A DNA stretch of 64,000 bases from a virus (lineage: Duplodnaviria > Caudoviricetes). This document shows, in pieces, positions 13,776 to 51,786 of the stretch. Position 1 is the first letter of the stretch. Each line of letters begins with the position of its first letter. Made by a program: the position numbers and the translations under genes. The DNA is taken from IMG/VR virus record IMGVR_UViG_3300034126_000020, positions 128,001 to 192,000 of that record. One strand, 5' to 3'. Below the pieces are notes generated by a model, which saw only the letters and a program-made list of their open reading frames with translations, did no database searches and had not been told where the DNA came from.

Positions 13776-14405
13776 TTAGACAAAGTTCCAGTCAGGATCA
13801 TCAGAGTTAAGCTTATTGCGGATAGTGGTGCGACCCATCTTCAATTCACTCGCGGCGATCTGGATACTGGGGTATGTAGTCCCATTAATCACGATCTCCT
13901 TCTGTCGAGCCTCACCTATACGGCGCTTGTGTTCATCAGAGTGAGGTCTGCCCTTACCGATCTCGGAGAGTTTACGACAAGTCTCTTCAGACGGTGGAGC
14001 GCGGTGTATTGCAGCTACACGCATCCGTTGAAGTGTCTCTTCGCTGTATACTCTCCCGAGATTAGCTTGACGACACTTCTCTCGACTCTCTTCAGGCATC
14101 CCATGAGACCATGCAGCAATCGATCCCGTACCAAGGTTGGCACAGTCCGGGTCACCATGATGGAAGTTAATGAGGCTCTGTTCAAGCCGCTTTGAATGAT
14201 CTTCCGATGTTGCAGCGATGTACTCCACCTCAACATTGTCCCAGCTCGTAAAGCCGCGTTGTAGGTTTTCATTCGGATGGTTCCCGAGATTAAAACGACT
14301 ACGATGATCTCGTAGTCGCTTATCGAGATTATTGGTGCTTCCGACGTAGAACGTGCCGGACTGGGTGTCTGTGATTTTATACGCTGCAACGATCGGCTTT
14401 GTCAT
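13776..14405 (-). CDS. Free-standing GIY-YIG homing endonuclease with NUMOD3 repeats and a C-terminal NUMOD1/HTH
   Basis: AAYKI...FYVGST..LDKRLRDH; SEET.xKMS-type repeats; INGTTYPSIQIAASEL. Confidence 0.9.
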   Translation of the reverse strand: MTKPIVAAYKITDTQSGTFYVGSTNNLDKRLRDHRSRFNLGNHPNENLQRGFTSWDNVEVEYIAATSEDHSKRLEQSLINFHHGDPDCANLGTGSIAAWSHGMPEESREKCRQANLGRVYSEETLQRMRVAAIHRAPPSEETCRKLSEIGKGRPHSDEHKRRIGEARQKEIVINGTTYPSIQIAASELKMGRTTIRNKLNSDDPDWNFV

Positions 14406-14740
14406 GCCGAGATTTCGATGATCGATTGCCACTTGTTCAGTTGTTCGTGTTGATAGCTGAACAGCAACGTGAAGTTCAGGAAGTCATCCCCCATCTCTTC
14501 GTTGTGACGATGACACACCGTCATCACTTCGTAGAGTTTCGTTTTCTGTTCCTCTACTTCGGGCCATCCCAACTTGCTATCGCGAGGAAGGACAGACAGA
14601 TACTGTCCTCCATTCGGTGAACAGGTATGGACACCCGTATGTTGCAAGCCAAGCTCTTCACACTTGGCCAGTACCTTTGCCATCCCCTGCTTGTCGGAGA
14701 TAGCGTACACATGCAACGTCCTGAATCCGTACTCACTCAT
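14402..14740 (-). CDS. Hypothetical protein
   Basis: 112 aa; stop overlaps the endonuclease start (ATGA). Confidence 0.65.
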   Translation of the reverse strand: MSEYGFRTLHVYAISDKQGMAKVLAKCEELGLQHTGVHTCSPNGGQYLSVLPRDSKLGWPEVEEQKTKLYEVMTVCHRHNEEMGDDFLNFTLLFSYQHEQLNKWQSIIEISA

Positions 14741-26439: not shown

Positions 26440-27936
26440 TTAGAAATTGAAGTTGCCAGTGTTGCTGAGGATTGGGGACTCTTCGTAGTCATCGTCGGCA
26501 CTCGACCGGCGATTGGACCCGAGTTTGTCCACGATGTCGGTAAGCGAGGAACTCATGGCCCCGATGGTGTCCTGATCATTCGCAATGATCGGCGGTACCA
26601 AGGAGTCACAGAACACAGGGAAGACGTCCTCGAACGGATCTTCGCCTTCCAGCTTGAGCTTGATCACGATGTCGTTTGCCAGACCGGCTTGGACTTCGAT
26701 CTCGAACATGCAGTCCGGCCACGGGAGCATGTCGTAGAACAGCTCGGTCACACAGCGCTCTTCGAACGCCATCAGCGAGCGATCGGTGATCTGCTTGCCA
26801 ATGATCGGCAGGCACTGCGGGATGATCATGACAGGTTCGCCCAACGCCGACATGTTGTCCGCCGAGAACTCGACGTACGCGATGTGGTGGAACGCCATGA
26901 ATGCTGGGAGAGCCCGGGCAATCTGGATAGCGGCGATGGTGCTGTTGTCACGACCGGACCAGCCGGAACGGTTGTGGTGGCTGCGTGCAGTCTCAGGGCG
27001 CTCGAAGAACACCTTGACGTCGTCCCAGACATACTCCGGGTTCATCGCAATCAGCTCACCGTAGGTGATGAAGCCTTGCTCGAGGATGTTGGTCTCACGA
27101 GCAATGTCGGCCAACACTGGGATGCTGCTCACAGTCTTCTCACGGACTTGGGAGCGTGCATCTTTCAGGATCGAGCCGGTGTCACGATCGAACTGGTTGC
27201 CTTGGCCGAAGACTTCGCCTTCATTCGCAGTTGCCAGCGCTTTGATCGAGCGGTGCAGGTAACGAGTGGAGGAGTCATTGAGACGGTTGGACATCCGCAG
27301 GCCTTTACCGGTGAACCCATGGCGCATGTCCAGGTAGTTCTCTTTCTCGGCACGGCGGTTGAACGCGTTCGACACCACGTTCTTCGGGTTATTGTGGAAC
27401 ACGTCTTCTGGACGCATCACCAGCGTACCCGCTGACATTCGGTCACGGCTGAAGTCCGGCAAGACTTGCGGCGCAATCAAATGGTTGGAACTGGCAATCT
27501 GGGTCTGCCAACCACGACGGGTCGGGGTATCCATGTAGCTTTGGTTCAGCTCGGTCACGGAGTTGAAGTACAACGCCATGTTCTCATCGAGCTTGATGCC
27601 GCGGATGCCTTGGGAAGCGCCCACGTAGTCGGTATAGCCGGAGATCTCCAGGGTCCGGATGTCGGTACGGCTTTTGCGAACCAGAACGGTCATCATGAAC
27701 ATGAACCGCTTCTCGCCCCAGCCATTGGCAATGATCGCACTGCCTTGGTGTTGGGACGCCGGACGGATGATTCGACCCGCCACACGGCTCAGAGCCGCTG
27801 GAGTCAGGTCTTCACCGCCACGGGTGTCACGGTCCAGGATGCCGATCAATTCGTCGGTGGCATCGGCGTAATAAGGACGGAGTTGCATGTCCTTGTAGCC
27901 CGAGCGCTCACGGAATACGAGATCAATTAGTTGCAT
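26440..27936 (-). CDS. picA: Nuclear-shell import factor PicA/Imp1 (phiKZ gp69-like)
   Basis: Position between gp68-like and gp70-like genes and ~500-aa size; start set at MQLIDL (GGAG RBS). Confidence 0.72.
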   Translation of the reverse strand: MQLIDLVFRERSGYKDMQLRPYYADATDELIGILDRDTRGGEDLTPAALSRVAGRIIRPASQHQGSAIIANGWGEKRFMFMMTVLVRKSRTDIRTLEISGYTDYVGASQGIRGIKLDENMALYFNSVTELNQSYMDTPTRRGWQTQIASSNHLIAPQVLPDFSRDRMSAGTLVMRPEDVFHNNPKNVVSNAFNRRAEKENYLDMRHGFTGKGLRMSNRLNDSSTRYLHRSIKALATANEGEVFGQGNQFDRDTGSILKDARSQVREKTVSSIPVLADIARETNILEQGFITYGELIAMNPEYVWDDVKVFFERPETARSHHNRSGWSGRDNSTIAAIQIARALPAFMAFHHIAYVEFSADNMSALGEPVMIIPQCLPIIGKQITDRSLMAFEERCVTELFYDMLPWPDCMFEIEVQAGLANDIVIKLKLEGEDPFEDVFPVFCDSLVPPIIANDQDTIGAMSSSLTDIVDKLGSNRRSSADDDYEESPILSNTGNFNF

Positions 27937-36695: not shown

Positions 36696-38606
36696 TTAGA
36701 AGCTATTGCCGAAGCCAAAGCCGTTACCAACGTTGCCACGCAGCGAACGAGCGCCGTCACCAGTCACGCGGCGGCTCGAGAGCATGCCGTGAGTGAGGTC
36801 ACCGCCGACGAAGTCACGGATGCGAGTGTTACCACGCAGGCGACGGTTGCCGAAGGTGTAGTGAGCGGAACGCTGGTCGATGTTGATTTTGCAATCAGCA
36901 ACGGCCATTGCCAGCGCTTCGATGAACTGCGGGTTGACGAAAGCCAGGTCTACGTAACGAGCGAACTTCACGTTGCTCGCGCCGAGGGCGCTGGTCAGTT
37001 GGTCGTACTGCTCGCTGACGCGGATTTCTACGTCCAGGTCAACGCGGTCGATCACGTCCTGATAACGCAGGGCAGATTCGCCTTCGTCATTCGGGTTGGT
37101 GGCCATCCAGCGCAGCAGGTCCCATTCACGCAGATCGCGCTCGTTGCCCTTCTCGTCGATCCAGGTGCCAGTCAGGTAACGAGCACCGGACATTTGCAGC
37201 GGGGTTTCGACGCCCAGTTCACGGGCACGGCGGGTGAAGTTGCCGTTGGTCAGACGGTCGGCGTAGTCGTACAGACGGCCGATGGCGTCCTTGTTGGCGC
37301 TGTCGTCAGTAGCAGCGTCGGACAGCAGGGAGGTGATCCAGCTGTTGTCGCCGCCTTCTTCCAGCTCGATAGCCCAGGCCAGGTTGTCGTCAACCAGGCT
37401 GAAGAAGTACTGAGCCCACTTGTGGGTGTCCAGCGACGCACGGTTGTCGAACTCGACCGGAGTCTTGTCCTGATCCGGGCCGAGGATGTTCAGCAGGCCA
37501 GCATCACGGTGGTCGATTTCGCCGCGAGCGATGTCGCCCGGCAGGTAGGTCTGAGCCCACGCTTGGTCTTTCGAGATGACCGACGCACCAGCCAGAGCCA
37601 GCAACAGCAGCTCAGGGGTGATGCCGTTGGCGTTGGTGTCCATGCGGTTGATCACGTACATCGGAGTGAAGTACGGCTGATCACGGCGCTGGGTACGGCT
37701 CCAACGATCTTGTTCGACCGGCGGGGTGTACATGATGCTGACGTAACCGCCCAGGTTGGCCAGGCCAACAGGGATGTTCTGGTCGCCTTTGCGCACGATG
37801 CCGGCAACGGTAACGGCCAGGTCGGAACGACGTGGCAGACCGTCAGCGGTCATGGCTTCACGGCCAGACAGGTCGACGTTGATTTCCAGGGTCGATTGCT
37901 TGCTCAGCCAGTCCAGCGAGAAGAACAGGTCAGGCTGGAACAGGTTGCTGTAGATCGCTGCCAGAGCGGCCTGGGCGTAGAACACGACCTGACGCACTTC
38001 GGTGTTTTCCGGATCGTTGAAGTCCACTTTGTGGGACACTACGCGCCAGCCGGCACGAACGATCTCGACGCTACGGCGCGACTGATCGAAAGCCTTCTTC
38101 GCGATTTCGTCAACCAGAGCCAGGTAGCTCTCGGTGATGTAGTCGGAGGCGATGATCGGCAGCGGGTAGGTGCGATGGTTGATTTCGACGTTACGCACGG
38201 TGGCGTCGTCGGTCATGCTCGAGGACAGAGCCAGAGCCGACACCAGAACCTTGACGGTGCCGTTGTCTTCGACTGGGTAAGCCAGGATCACCGAGGAGAT
38301 GCTGACGTTGTGCTCGGAAGCTTCCAGACCCAGAACTTGGATCTTGGAGAGGTCGATCAGGCCGGCGCCTGCAACCTGACGCTCTGGATCGAACCAGTGC
38401 TTAACCGACTTAACAGCGTTGACCAGAACTTCGCCGCTGATGCGACGGGACATCGGTGCGCCGAGCAGGCGGTTGATGTCCAGCAGGCCAGCGGTGCCAG
38501 CCTGCGATTCACGGGCAGGGCGCTCAGCACGTTCGCTGCGAGGTTGTTCGGTGCGCGGACGCTCGTTGCTCGAAGCGGTGTTGTCGATGTCGTCTTGTAC
38601 AGCCAT
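36696..38606 (-). CDS. chmA: Chimallin, major nuclear shell protein (phiKZ gp54-like)
   Basis: 636 aa directly upstream of the nvRNAP catalytic subunit; disordered N-terminus, G/F-rich C-terminal tail, extreme codon bias, own promoter and terminator. Confidence 0.88.
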   Translation of the reverse strand: MAVQDDIDNTASSNERPRTEQPRSERAERPARESQAGTAGLLDINRLLGAPMSRRISGEVLVNAVKSVKHWFDPERQVAGAGLIDLSKIQVLGLEASEHNVSISSVILAYPVEDNGTVKVLVSALALSSSMTDDATVRNVEINHRTYPLPIIASDYITESYLALVDEIAKKAFDQSRRSVEIVRAGWRVVSHKVDFNDPENTEVRQVVFYAQAALAAIYSNLFQPDLFFSLDWLSKQSTLEINVDLSGREAMTADGLPRRSDLAVTVAGIVRKGDQNIPVGLANLGGYVSIMYTPPVEQDRWSRTQRRDQPYFTPMYVINRMDTNANGITPELLLLALAGASVISKDQAWAQTYLPGDIARGEIDHRDAGLLNILGPDQDKTPVEFDNRASLDTHKWAQYFFSLVDDNLAWAIELEEGGDNSWITSLLSDAATDDSANKDAIGRLYDYADRLTNGNFTRRARELGVETPLQMSGARYLTGTWIDEKGNERDLREWDLLRWMATNPNDEGESALRYQDVIDRVDLDVEIRVSEQYDQLTSALGASNVKFARYVDLAFVNPQFIEALAMAVADCKINIDQRSAHYTFGNRRLRGNTRIRDFVGGDLTHGMLSSRRVTGDGARSLRGNVGNGFGFGNSF

Positions 38607-48395: not shown

Positions 48396-48809
48396 TTACG
48401 TTTCCTTCTTAAACAGGTCAGTGAGGTATTCGTTCCCGAACGGTGAATCGCTATCGGAGGCCTTGCCGACTGGCTTGATGGACTGATAGTAGTAGTAGTT
48501 CGGGTTGATGTGTGGGAACCACGTCTTGAGCTTCTCAACCGACCGCTTCGGACTGACGTCGTAGTCATGGATCATGTAGTCCACGCCTTTGAACGTCATG
48601 CCGATGCTGTAGTTGACCGAACCGTCTTCCATCTCGTGCTTGACCATGATAGCGCAGCAAGGCGCGTCATCTTGTTTCCACACGAGTTCGTTGTACGGTT
48701 CAAGCAAGGCATGGATCTGCTTATCTTCACTGTTGGACAGGAACATAAGCAGATCCACCAAGGACGCCGTGGAGTCTGCTGCGTGCAGGACGGTCGTCAG
48801 TTTGATCAT
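48396..48809 (-). CDS. Hypothetical protein
   Basis: 137 aa in an operon. Confidence 0.65.
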   Translation of the reverse strand: MIKLTTVLHAADSTASLVDLLMFLSNSEDKQIHALLEPYNELVWKQDDAPCCAIMVKHEMEDGSVNYSIGMTFKGVDYMIHDYDVSPKRSVEKLKTWFPHINPNYYYYQSIKPVGKASDSDSPFGNEYLTDLFKKET

Positions 48810-49612
48810 TCGGCTTTCTCAACCGGCAGAGTCGTGTAGGTAGGGCTGAACTGACTTGGAGAAGTCTCGATCGTCGATTCCGAGATGATGCCGACGTCAG
48901 GACTGCGTGGATGTACGCGTGGACCACGGAAGAGTGGGCGTGGTTCAGTCTGACTGCTGTCTCGCCAGGTCTTGACCACTTTCAGAGGAGACCAAGCCAA
49001 CAGGATGTCAGCTTGAGTCGCAGCCTTGTTCTCTTCGAAGTGCACGGTTCGCCACTTACCTTCACCGTCCAGCAATTGAAGGGAACCCTTCTTGCCATTG
49101 CGCAGGTAGTTAATCTGCACCAGCTCATTAATGGTCAGAAGCTCAGGGAGCATCTCGCCGACTGGCATGAGTTGGTGGTTGAGAATGGTGTCACGCAGAC
49201 CCATGTACAACAGCATGTTCTTGAACACCTTGCGGCGGATTTTACGCGGCTTGCTGCCCAGATGGATGCGATTCTTCTCACGCATCTTGGCCTTGAGCTT
49301 CTTGCCAGCCCAGCCGATCAGGAGATCTTGCTCCGTCACGTTCTCACGATCAAACATGGCCATGTAATCTTTGCCGGCACGTTTGGCGTACTTCATCAAC
49401 TTGGCTTGGAAGTTGGACTTCGTAGCGCAAAGGTTGCTTGGGTACTTGGTGTCTTGGCGAAGAATACCGCGCCACAGTTGACGCCGGTACAGTTCAACGT
49501 TATTCAGATAACTCATCTTGCGGGGTTCCTTGATGGAGTAGCCGCTGAGGCCGTGCTTGTTTCGAAGCACGACCCCATCAGCGCCAATAGAGAGGTTAGA
49601 GTGGAAGTCCAT
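48806..49612 (-). CDS. Basic hypothetical protein
   Basis: 268 aa; K/R-rich middle. Confidence 0.65.
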   Translation of the reverse strand: MDFHSNLSIGADGVVLRNKHGLSGYSIKEPRKMSYLNNVELYRRQLWRGILRQDTKYPSNLCATKSNFQAKLMKYAKRAGKDYMAMFDRENVTEQDLLIGWAGKKLKAKMREKNRIHLGSKPRKIRRKVFKNMLLYMGLRDTILNHQLMPVGEMLPELLTINELVQINYLRNGKKGSLQLLDGEGKWRTVHFEENKAATQADILLAWSPLKVVKTWRDSSQTEPRPLFRGPRVHPRSPDVGIISESTIETSPSQFSPTYTTLPVEKAE

Positions 49613-50322
49613 CAGAACTTGAAGTTCGTCGGGAGTCCACCTTCTTCGAGGTTTGCCGGGGTGTGGAACTTGACCAGCTCTTCGTAACGAGACTTGGCTT
49701 CGTCCATGTTGTTCGCCGGGTAGATCTCGATGGTCAGGGTTTCCCAGGTCTTGTACTCGGCCTGGAACTCATTGCTTGGGTGAACGCCGTATTCCAACTT
49801 GTGGTTGTTCAGTTGGATGGCGTAGTCCAGGTCATCGCTGTAGCCCAGGATGTTGAAGGTGTCGTCTTCGTCGTCGAAGATACGGAACGCACCGATCTTT
49901 CGTGGTGCAACTTTGAAGTCGTCAGCGTGCACTTCTTTGAGCCAGCTTGGCTCTTGGAAGTTGGCGTTGAAACCGTAGCGCGTGGCGTTGTTCTCGAAGA
50001 CGGTGATCTCCGTGGCTTCAGGCCAGAAGGTCGTGATGTCGTCGATGCTTTCCACATAGGCCATCATCATGTTGGCATCGTGGGACATGCGCACGATCCA
50101 GTACGGGTGGTACAGAGGCCAAGCAATCGGGCGGGAGTCGTGGATGTATTCCGGGTCGTCGAGGTGACGCGGAGGTACCGGCGACAGGAAGCCCACACGG
50201 AACAGTGGCGTGCCACCGTAGACCGGTTGCCAGATGAACGCTTGCTCAGCGTGTGGCTTGGTGATGAGTTCGTACATCGGCTTACCGTCAAGGCCGAGGA
50301 TGACTTCTTTCTTCTGGCTCAT
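49612..50322 (-). CDS. Two-domain protein with a C-terminal degenerate GIY-YIG domain
   Basis: C-terminal ~80 aa aligns by eye to the GIY-YIG domain of 13776..14405. Confidence 0.7.
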   Translation of the reverse strand: MSQKKEVILGLDGKPMYELITKPHAEQAFIWQPVYGGTPLFRVGFLSPVPPRHLDDPEYIHDSRPIAWPLYHPYWIVRMSHDANMMMAYVESIDDITTFWPEATEITVFENNATRYGFNANFQEPSWLKEVHADDFKVAPRKIGAFRIFDDEDDTFNILGYSDDLDYAIQLNNHKLEYGVHPSNEFQAEYKTWETLTIEIYPANNMDEAKSRYEELVKFHTPANLEEGGLPTNFKF

Positions 50323-50332
50323 GTTGTAACTC

Positions 50333-50692
50333 CTAGCAGATGGGGCTAATGATGATGACCGTATCGTCAAGCTTGAAGCCTGGGATCGGCAATGGATCGC
50401 TCATGTCGGTGTAACCCAGTCCCGTGTTCATATCCACGAAGATCAGGCCAGCCAACACACGCTCAGGCGTAGTGGTGATTTCAAGGAACTCACGACGAGC
50501 TCCTTCAGCACTACGGACAGGTGGGTGCATGGTGTCTTGCGGTCTCGGATGTGACTCGACGCGCATGGTGATTGTGTGGTCAATGAAACGACCGAATACG
50601 CGGTAGACCTTTTCGCTGCCACCACGAATGAATTCGTCGCCCGGTAACAGGCGCTTGATGTTGATGGGGGTGCCTTGGCGTGCCTGTACCAT
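50333..50692 (-). CDS. Hypothetical protein
   Basis: Start MVQARQG with GGAG RBS, after the PhuZ terminator. Confidence 0.6.
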   Translation of the reverse strand: MVQARQGTPINIKRLLPGDEFIRGGSEKVYRVFGRFIDHTITMRVESHPRPQDTMHPPVRSAEGARREFLEITTTPERVLAGLIFVDMNTGLGYTDMSDPLPIPGFKLDDTVIIISPIC

Positions 50693-50717
50693 TGTAACTC
50701 CTACATGCGGCATAAAG

Positions 50718-50742
50718 ACCGTGGAAGATCCCCCTCCACGGT
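50718..50742 (-). terminator. Hairpin downstream of phuZ
   Basis: accgtgga...tccacggt. Confidence 0.55.
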
Positions 50743-50750
50743 CCTTGTGT

Positions 50751-51740
50751 TTACCAAACCAGGCCGGAGGCCGTTGGCTTGTCCTTGTCGCCAGTGAACG
50801 CGACTGCTTCAGTAGCAGCTTGTTCTTGGTCGGCGATTTCACGCTCGAGGTCTTCGACGCGCTTACGCAGTTCACCCATGGAGCCGTTTTCGATACCGAA
50901 GAACAGGCTGCCTTTGGCTTGTGCGATGGAAGGCATTACGCCGTAAGTGCTGTAAGGCACGAACATTTCCGGAGTCGGATCGGTGGCTTCACGCAGCAGG
51001 TAAGCAGAGGCCAGAGCGCCGCTACGCATCAGCTTGGTGAAGTCTTCGATGTTGTCCGACACGTGCATGCGGCACAGTTGGGCACGAGCCTTGGTCGACT
51101 TGGTGAAGTTGAACAGCGACTTCAAGTCTGCGGTGTCCAGGCCGTGGTTACGGCGAGAGACCAGAGCAGCCAAAGCGGTGATCATCAGGTGCGCTTCGTT
51201 GTCGACAGCTTTGTCAGTCATCTGGCCGGCTTTGTTGAAGCCCAGGTGAATGATGCCCGGCATGCCGCAGGAGCGCGAGATGTTGTCCAGGGTCTTCACG
51301 CCACCGATGGTGTTCTCGGCGTTGCGGATGGCCTGTTGTGCCCAGACCACGATACCCATGGCCATGTGACCATCGTCCAGCAGCTTCTTCAGGATCAGGG
51401 GACCCGATACCGAACCAGTACCGCCAGCCAACGTGAAGACCACAACGGTCATGTCAGCAGGTGGGAACTTGCGCAAGATGTCAGGAACAGCTTTGGCAAT
51501 CGCTTCAGCGTTTTCAGGACGCAGGCCGCCTGAGCCGTCCAGACCATCGAACAGCCAGGTCTTGTCAACCAGACGGTCATCGAGGTTGGAGTCAGAGGTG
51601 TCCACGAAGCAAACTTCGATGTTCGCGACGTCGGCGCTGTGACCAGCTTCCAGGTATTCCTTAGCGATGTTGACACCGCCGCCACCACAGCCGATGATGC
51701 GCATGGTGCCTACAGGACGATTAGAGAGACCGTGACTCAT
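50751..51740 (-). CDS. phuZ: PhuZ phage tubulin
   Basis: IIGCGGGGVNIA, DTS, GLDGSG and AGGTGS tubulin signatures; 329 aa from MSHGL. Confidence 0.95.
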   Translation of the reverse strand: MSHGLSNRPVGTMRIIGCGGGGVNIAKEYLEAGHSADVANIEVCFVDTSDSNLDDRLVDKTWLFDGLDGSGGLRPENAEAIAKAVPDILRKFPPADMTVVVFTLAGGTGSVSGPLILKKLLDDGHMAMGIVVWAQQAIRNAENTIGGVKTLDNISRSCGMPGIIHLGFNKAGQMTDKAVDNEAHLMITALAALVSRRNHGLDTADLKSLFNFTKSTKARAQLCRMHVSDNIEDFTKLMRSGALASAYLLREATDPTPEMFVPYSTYGVMPSIAQAKGSLFFGIENGSMGELRKRVEDLEREIADQEQAATEAVAFTGDKDKPTASGLVW

Positions 51741-51786
51741 TGTGACTACCTCATTGAGGGTTGTTGATTTGGGTGTTGCACACAAT

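Follow-up and report, generated by a model that had tools for sequence, protein, structure and literature searches.

P0001 is a gene of a virus of the Caudoviricetes (Duplodnaviria) whose product, a two-domain acidic protein of 236 amino acids, ends in a domain that has the fold of a GIY-YIG homing endonuclease and lacks the residues with which these enzymes cut DNA. The gene lies on the minus strand at positions 49612..50322 (ATG at 50322, stop codon at 49612-49614) of the 64,000-nucleotide stretch that we analysed (the window), which spans positions 128,001 to 192,000 of IMG/VR record IMGVR_UViG_3300034126_000020, a 276,810-bp viral record with terminal repeats. Our results establish the fold and homology of the C-terminal domain (C-domain, residues 143-221; 49660..49896, minus strand), its residue losses and reversal of charge, the purifying selection acting on it and the fixed synteny of the gene. 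We consider it likely that the C-domain is a non-catalytic binding or scaffold module that acts with the N-terminal domain (N-domain, residues 28-140; 49903..50241, minus strand). P0001 as a whole is probably an accessory protein without enzymatic activity, conserved and strongly acidic, in the nucleus-forming jumbo phages that resemble Pseudomonas phage pPa_SNUABM_DT01 (DT01), the sole cultured relative of the source phage.

The preliminary description of this DNA, made from the letters alone, had noticed that the C-terminus of P0001 runs almost colinearly with the endonuclease encoded at 13776, and both sequence and profile comparisons confirm it. This endonuclease, P0128 (13776..14405, minus strand; 209 amino acids counted from Met10 of the open reading frame, ORF, listed at 13776-14432), has GIY-YIG (Pfam, E 3.8e-8) and NUMOD3 domains, matches the PHROG homing endonuclease family (3e-26) and is the only Pfam GIY-YIG match of the genome. 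BLASTP aligned residues 143-230 of P0001 with residues 15-105 of P0128 at 26% identity and 51% positives (46.6 bits; E 5e-11 for a single comparison), with two gaps only, of one and four residues. When a C-domain alignment of 24 sequences (A7) was compared with the alignment of the P0128 family (A5), hhalign returned a probability of 98.2% (E 3.9e-14, 81 columns). Run against the whole genome, the C-domain profile matched itself (E 4.7e-41) and P0128 (E 1.2e-13) and nothing else, and against the PDB it found the catalytic domain of I-TevI at E 4e-4. Among the matches listed from 50,697 phage records no GIY-YIG endonuclease exceeded 31 bits with the C-domain, and by these scores P0128 is much the closest presumably active relative of the domain.

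Structure prediction leads to the same place. An AlphaFold2 model of P0001 built on 26 homologues has a predicted local distance difference test score (pLDDT) of 82 and a predicted template modelling score (pTM) of 0.75, a value for the whole protein that suggests that the two domains pack against each other. In the model, the C-domain (pLDDT about 90) shows a beta-beta-alpha-alpha-beta-alpha arrangement, with strands at residues 144-150, 153-162 and 196-202 and helices at residues 165-178, 184-189 and 206-220. The first match of a Foldseek search of the PDB was I-TevI (1LN0), with a template modelling score (TM) of 0.72 and a root-mean-square deviation (rmsd) of 2.5 Å. VIA-align gave I-TevI a Z score of 10.6 (82 residues, rmsd 2.5 Å), ahead of UvrC-N (6.9), PD-T4-3 (6.7), the N-terminal domain of plant Grx (6.0), which we take to be GIY-YIG-like, T4 EndoII (5.3) and R.Eco29kI (5.1). 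Dozens of viral GIY-YIG endonucleases in BFVD match the C-domain and make up most of the list, and GIY-YIG clusters fill most rows of the ESM Atlas results. Model and structural comparisons return the GIY-YIG fold, as had been proposed, and not another one. By predicted fold and by homology, the C-domain is a member of the GIY-YIG superfamily. We also noticed in BFVD stand-alone GIY-YIG-only folds of about 110-120 amino acids, without a DNA-binding domain, in several Pseudomonas phages, for instance A0A8A6CBN0 (118 amino acids), A0A1Y0T3J7 (phage Noxifer, 113 amino acids) and A0A481W5V7 (phage Psa21, 111 amino acids).

We then read residue equivalences, in I-TevI numbering, from the alignments with I-TevI and P0128 and from family alignments of 31 members (26 close members plus five at 34-40% identity). 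The tyrosine of the GIY motif, Tyr6, is replaced by Phe146 in P0001, a conservative change at a position where the family has Phe, Tyr or Trp. The tyrosine of the YIG motif, Tyr17, the proposed general base, is Ile158 (Ile, Leu, Val or Ser in the family), Arg27 in helix 1 is Ala168 (Ala, Asp, Gln or Ser), and the metal-binding Glu75 of helix 3 is Tyr213, in a variable column with Ala as consensus. The C-domain fails four of the five hallmark residue tests of the superfamily, and none of the 31 aligned members has an equivalent of Tyr17, Arg27 or Glu75. His40 survives as His181, and this holds within the core clade. His31 corresponds to Asn172, at a variable position where Asn is commonest and a few members have His, and the structural Asn90 corresponds in the BLAST alignment to Asn224, which falls in the tail (pLDDT <50) and is unconserved beyond the window's subclade. 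The statement that both tyrosines, the arginine, the histidine and the glutamate had been substituted is hence accurate for P0001 itself, but for the first tyrosine it does not extend to the family, since many members keep it. The scaffold that had been described as preserved needs a similar restriction: G179, H181, Q187, W193 and F219 are kept, whereas P182 and H220 are kept in the window's subclade only.

In I-TevI and I-BmoI, the catalytic cleft is lined by Y17, R27, E74 and N87 (I-BmoI numbering), and an alanine in place of any one of them abolishes cleavage (PMC2853131). In our alignment the I-TevI chain of 1LN0 has an alanine at the Arg27 position, which is the usual natural residue of the P0001 family. 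The surface that faces DNA has changed as well, and the shift from basic to acidic that had been suggested is borne out as charge counts. The helix-1 stretch KRLRDHRSR of the resident endonuclease, with five basic residues and one acidic, reads YAIQLNNHK in P0001, with a single basic one. Residues 143-221 carry a net charge of -11 in P0001, and the values for the 26 close members run from -8 to -13, with a mean of -10; the corresponding stretch of the resident endonuclease has -1. A Pfam search detected no NUMOD or helix-turn-helix (HTH) DNA-binding part in P0001, whose GIY-YIG-like domain is C-terminal with only about 15 residues after it. Calling the domain catalytically dead is thus apt in the sense of residue loss, as residues essential for cleavage and the NUMOD/HTH parts are both missing. 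Loss of cleavage and of DNA binding by the C-domain is well supported, as a deduction from its sequence. Because it fails these residue tests, and also those of homing-endonuclease architecture and distribution, the C-domain should be filed as a GIY-YIG-derived pseudo-nuclease domain rather than as an endonuclease.

The P0001 family is conserved at full length. A word-indexed search recovered 25 full-length homologues of 230-240 amino acids with 52-94% identity, several of them on contigs of 236-277 kb, and five further full-length clusters of 216-231 amino acids, at 34-40% identity, came from an exhaustive search of 1.84 billion representatives. The start methionine is common to all 25 close homologues, and no truncation, frameshift or stop was seen in more than 30 homologues of 216-240 amino acids, down to 34% identity. 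The orthologue in DT01, PA10_00130, shares 69% identity with P0001 and occupies the identical place after the tubulin gene PhuZ. The six independent contigs examined, one of them from a relative at 40% identity, all place the gene 0-2 genes downstream of PhuZ. In the corresponding position behind PhuZ, Xanthomonas phage RTH11 and 201phi2-1 have no P0001 homologue (hhalign probability <3%), and for this reason the family appears confined to the DT01-like clade. P0001 has no family match in Pfam, PHROG or NCBIfam, and a megablast of its locus against the 50,697 phage records gave no match.

To assess selection, dN/dS ratios (nonsynonymous to synonymous substitution rates) were calculated by the Nei-Gojobori method for close pairs (dS about 0.3 in the closest), as more distant pairs are saturated. 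The ratio for the C-domain was 0.15 in the closest pair and 0.23-0.31 in other close pairs; for the N-domain it was 0.07 in the closest pair and 0.07-0.24 across close pairs. The C-domain evolves faster than the N-domain, yet is clearly under purifying selection. Given this selection and the fixed genomic position, describing the domain as domesticated was fair. A side observation concerns P0011, a member from a 13-kb ENA metagenome contig, which is a mosaic allele: its residues 1 to about 108 are 97% identical to P0003, of the window type, and its residues from about 109 to 235 are 93% identical to P0021, of a distant lineage, with the switch near the end of the N-domain. Either natural recombination among co-occurring DT01-like phages or an assembly chimera could account for it.

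The resident endonuclease has a different distribution. In the four-member family of P0128 the catalytic Tyr, Tyr, Arg, His, Glu and Asn are all invariant. A search of 5.8 billion clusters gave only three relatives of it, two on large contigs (144 and 250 kb), and in both the source genome and the 250-kb contig the P0128-type gene (L110:4001-4642 in the latter) adjoins a gene of about 960-970 amino acids. P0128 is a free-standing homing endonuclease of sporadic occurrence, and its insertion site is conserved. DT01 has no copy, and the sole match to P0128 there is the dead domain itself; since DT01 keeps the P0001 orthologue without P0128, P0001 is no dedicated partner of this endonuclease. The L110 contig also carries an 865-amino-acid gene with LAGLIDADG/Hom_end matches, probably an intein.

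The front of P0001 is of another origin, and the proposal that a GIY-YIG domain had been fused to an unrelated phage domain holds, the N-domain belonging to a widespread family of its own. This unnamed phage accessory family of about 85 amino acids has the motif RxRF..DxRPxxWPxxHPYW..VAY..WPEA..FxxRFPxPxW, with an insertion of about 10 residues in P0001. With phmmer, residues 60-130 matched about 90 cluster representatives at 1e-11 to 1e-3. In the representative library, 93 of the 99 matches span only residues from about 60 to 130, most of them in stand-alone proteins of about 80-110 amino acids, and a search of IMG/VR viral contigs with a single degenerate pattern gave 265 relatives. Annotated carriers include PaBG_00027 and proteins of Ralstonia phage RsoM2USA, Klebsiella phage 05F01 and the crAss-like gut phage csAssE-Sib, and chimallin is not encoded by PaBG or by any of the other three. 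Acidic members make up 93% of the family. Modelled by itself, the N-domain is a small alpha+beta sandwich with a pLDDT of 96.5. Compared with solved structures, it gave a best Z score of 4.4, to a generic alpha+beta sandwich, and no Foldseek match below E 0.09; sequence searches of Pfam, PHROG, NCBIfam, PADLOC and the PDB gave no match, and the scores in a feature search of the ESM Atlas were no higher than 0.77. Elsewhere the domain is joined to a GNAT acetyltransferase (P0069), a MazG-like PRA-PH domain (P0070), the A1S_2505 phage non-structural domain (NF049995, in P0045 and P0087, E 1e-34 and 3e-45) and several unassigned extensions. To judge from these fusions, the N-domain behaves as a promiscuous accessory module.

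The context of the N-domain in other phages was less informative. We found no recurrent neighbour family in 28 dereplicated IMG/VR loci, and the short metagenomic contigs with stand-alone members offered no informative context. A link to MazG/MazZ-like pyrophosphohydrolases, suspected from the P0070 fusion, from neighbours in csAssE-Sib and L015 and from a NUDIX neighbour in PaBG, was rejected: each was seen in one of the 28 loci and does not generalise. We also rejected a split GIY-like domain as the product of the gene that follows the stand-alone N-domain in PaBG; by eye this product looks like a membrane protein, with hydrophobic stretches.

Both domains of P0001 are flanked by short segments predicted to be flexible. 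The N-terminal segment of about 27 residues (50242..50322, minus strand) is modelled with low confidence (pLDDT 41-48 over residues 1-20) and carries the motif D12-G13-K14-P15-M16-Y17. In the alignment of the 26 close members, D12, G13 and Y17 are invariant and K14, P15 and M16 almost so; the motif is weaker or missing in the relatives at 34-40% identity. This DGKPMY peptide could be a partner-binding peptide. The C-terminal tail (residues 222-236 and the stop codon; 49612..49659, minus strand) is predicted to be disordered (pLDDT <50 over residues 224-236) and has a semi-conserved G-x-L-P-T motif, in which T232 is almost invariant.

If the C-domain no longer cuts DNA, the question is what its conserved residues do. 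In the 26 close members G160, Y167, Q170, H174, L176, Y178, H181, A209 and F219 are invariant. Y167, Q170 and H174 stand where I-TevI has the exposed Lys26, Lys29 and Lys33, all on the same side of helix 1 and adjacent to the former cleft. At 34-40% identity His174 becomes Leu or Val and His181 becomes Cys or Glu, and no set of polar residues is invariant once these relatives are included. This variation makes a new catalytic centre unlikely and favours a binding surface.

Taken together, our observations suggest the following history. The front half of P0001 would be one more instance of a small accessory domain that is widespread in phages. The rear half would descend from a free-standing, I-TevI-type GIY-YIG homing endonuclease, of which it represents the catalytic domain; this enzyme would belong to the P0128 lineage, which still circulates in these phages. 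We infer that, once joined to the N-domain gene, this endonuclease lost its C-terminal DNA-binding region, four of its five hallmark active-site residues and the basic helix that faces DNA, and that selection then retained what was left as a folded module. The present C-domain would neither cut nor bind DNA and would offer, jointly with the N-domain, a protein-binding or scaffold surface. The candidate new interface is the conserved patch of Tyr167, Gln170, His174, Tyr178 and His181, on or just after helix 1 and beside the former cleft.

Several points weigh against this interpretation. The Pfam GIY-YIG hidden Markov model does not match the C-domain at E<=1. The presumed non-catalytic role is deduced from what the domain lacks, and a catalytic or ligand site that has escaped recognition could be made up of the Tyr, Gln, His, Tyr and His residues of the core clade. 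The patch itself is placed by alignment and may be either interdomain or exposed. Finally, the acidity of P0001 (net charge -18) is marked but not extreme or exceptional for this genome, as it ranks 6th among the 67 crude ORFs of the window.

Two other explanations take the phage nucleus and phage conflict as their starting point. A homing endonuclease of a nucleus-forming phage must reach the phage DNA, so that its fold would already be competent for import, and a disarmed domain of this kind might carry a cytoplasmic-type N-domain into the phage nucleus. The genome encodes homologues of chimallin, PicA and PhuZ, the fold of the C-domain was kept while its chemistry was lost, and we saw the fusion in no clade but the one that encodes chimallin, the other four N-domain phages checked all being without chimallin. 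Proteins are selected for import by patches on their folded surface, and cargo fused to GFPmut1, a folded domain competent for import, is drawn into the phiKZ nucleus (PMC11087766). However, the fusion is a single evolutionary event, so its association with chimallin has no statistical weight, and the remodelling of the surface, from a charge of -1 to about -10, could equally have destroyed an import patch. We consider this explanation unlikely; if true, it would provide a portable, natural import determinant for a chimallivirus, with PicA-dependent import. The preliminary description had instead suggested an immunity factor or decoy, such as an import competitor or an inhibitor of rival endonucleases, or else a DNA mimic. 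A decoy would be a pseudo-enzyme that blocks rival GIY-YIG nucleases by binding them or vies with them for nuclear import, and an acidic DNA mimic would inhibit host defence proteins that bind DNA. Small phage inhibitor proteins are often acidic, and so is P0001, with a C-domain near -10 in every member and a predominantly acidic N-domain family. The nearest active relative of the C-domain is moreover a mobile endonuclease of the same phage clade, and nucleus-forming phages that infect the same cell are reported to compete by means of intron endonucleases (PMC11620839). Against a decoy, the presence of P0001 follows no simple logic, as DT01 has the orthologue without P0128 and the source genome has both. 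I-TevI-type catalytic domains also act as monomers and have no known dimer interface to poison. As for a DNA mimic, P0001 is no more acidic than the products of several neighbouring genes. A role of this type seems to us improbable.

The remaining explanations concern the C-domain itself. It might still be an enzyme, with a site built from Tyr167, His174, Tyr178 and His181 that would be non-canonical much as that of R.Hpy188I is, and a nucleic acid or nucleotide-like substrate. GIY-YIG enzymes with unusual active sites do exist (PMC2630997). The invariance of these residues and of Q170 in the close members, as well as the fusion of the N-domain elsewhere to true enzyme domains, GNAT and MazG-like, would fit such a site. 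Nevertheless, the replacement of both histidines in the distant relatives, the lack of any conserved metal-binding acidic residue at or near the Glu75 column and a strong negative charge that disfavours nucleic-acid substrates make it very unlikely. At the opposite extreme, the C-domain could be a neutral relic, left by an endonuclease that inserted behind the N-domain gene, was fused to it by loss of a stop codon and is now decaying. Free-standing endonuclease genes do insert between phage genes, and the C-domain is the faster-evolving of the two. Even so, dN/dS of 0.15-0.31 in close pairs, an intact frame and constant length in over 30 lineages, the most distant at 34% identity, invariant glycine, aromatic and histidine positions and a predicted fold of high confidence effectively refute this idea, and with it the decaying pseudogene that had been named as the alternative to domestication.

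We therefore return to a non-catalytic accessory protein, and to the genome in which it is found. This is a nucleus-forming jumbo phage by gene content, since it encodes homologues of chimallin (201phi2-1 gp105; 36816..38378, minus strand, E 6e-19) and of PicA/phiKZ gp69 (26518-27903, minus strand, E 1e-34). The PhuZ tubulin gene (50751..51785, minus strand; Pfam Tubulin 7e-12, PHROG PhuZ 7e-67) lies one small gene upstream of P0001, in a tight minus-strand string of PhuZ, the small ORF, about 10 bases and then P0001. The small gene (50333-50875, minus strand) has no Pfam or PHROG family match, and what fills the gap between PhuZ and the P0001 family varies: a gene of about 150 amino acids in DT01 and in the P0013 contig, two of 127 and 119 amino acids in L012, one of 68 amino acids in L008 and none in L004 and L013. 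On the other side, an ORF of 268 amino acids (48806-49612, minus strand) without Pfam or PHROG family overlaps the stop codon of P0001. ORFs matched to it by position and size follow the homologue in the closest relatives (270 amino acids in L012, 271 in L013 and 239 in L004), and none of a size near 268 amino acids is found behind the gene in DT01 or in the P0013 contig; on this basis it is a variable insertion right behind P0001. Regarding habitat, a preprint reports that JPTI55, a DT01-like jumbo phage isolated from garden compost, transduces a genomic island in Pseudomonas fluorescens SBW25 (bioRxiv 10.1101/2024.08.29.610337). Several P0001 homologues come from compost metagenomes, which together with JPTI55 suggests the habitat and host range of the clade.

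Comparison with known systems helps to delimit what P0001 is. The C-domain shares with I-TevI of phage T4 (PDB 1LN0 / 1MK0) a beta-beta-alpha-alpha-beta-alpha fold of about 90 residues, His40 and the glycines, and differs from it in lacking Tyr17, Arg27 and Glu75 and in its neutralised helix 1. In I-TevI an N-terminal catalytic domain is followed by a linker and a DNA-binding domain; in P0001 the domain is C-terminal and neither of these parts is present. Homing endonucleases are sporadic and mobile, whereas the P0001 gene is fixed after PhuZ in every DT01-like contig examined. With the P0128 family the C-domain has in common the scaffold G-x-H-P...Q..F..W..F-H, but P0128 and its relatives, unlike the C-domain, have the full set of catalytic residues and a NUMOD3/HTH tail and occur sporadically. 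A parallel exists in the LAGLIDADG intron maturases, in which a homing-endonuclease fold was kept under selection after the loss of cleavage and took on a new, non-nucleolytic role. These belong to another superfamily and bind intron RNA, while the acidic C-domain is unlikely to bind nucleic acid. The N-domain resembles PaBG_00027 and other stand-alone proteins of about 85 amino acids in motif and in predicted fold (BFVD S5WK67, TM 0.72, rmsd 2.5 Å); its relatives stand alone or have other partners, and only the DT01-like clade gives it a dead GIY-YIG partner. Ocr and ArdA are acidic DNA-mimic anti-restriction proteins, usually dimers, whose carboxylates are arranged like the phosphates of B-DNA. 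P0001 resembles them as a small, strongly acidic phage accessory protein, in net charge only, and has no relation to them in fold or sequence.

In the literature searched, no disarmed GIY-YIG domain has been described in phages or in nucleus-forming phages, and the terms 'inactive' and 'catalytic residues' do not occur in the text of the 2006 survey of the GIY-YIG superfamily. Homing endonucleases are usually viewed as selfish passengers, and clear cases of nuclease folds that were disarmed and yet kept are rare in phages. The P0001 family is clade-wide, syntenic and under selection, and the presence of an active close relative in the same genome allows an unusually clean comparison of before and after. 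Through its N-domain, the finding also draws attention to a large family of small phage accessory proteins that are still uncharacterised. Finally, as P0001 lies next to PhuZ in a phage of the nucleus-forming type, the site at which the protein localises could inform the question of how such phages choose proteins for nuclear import.

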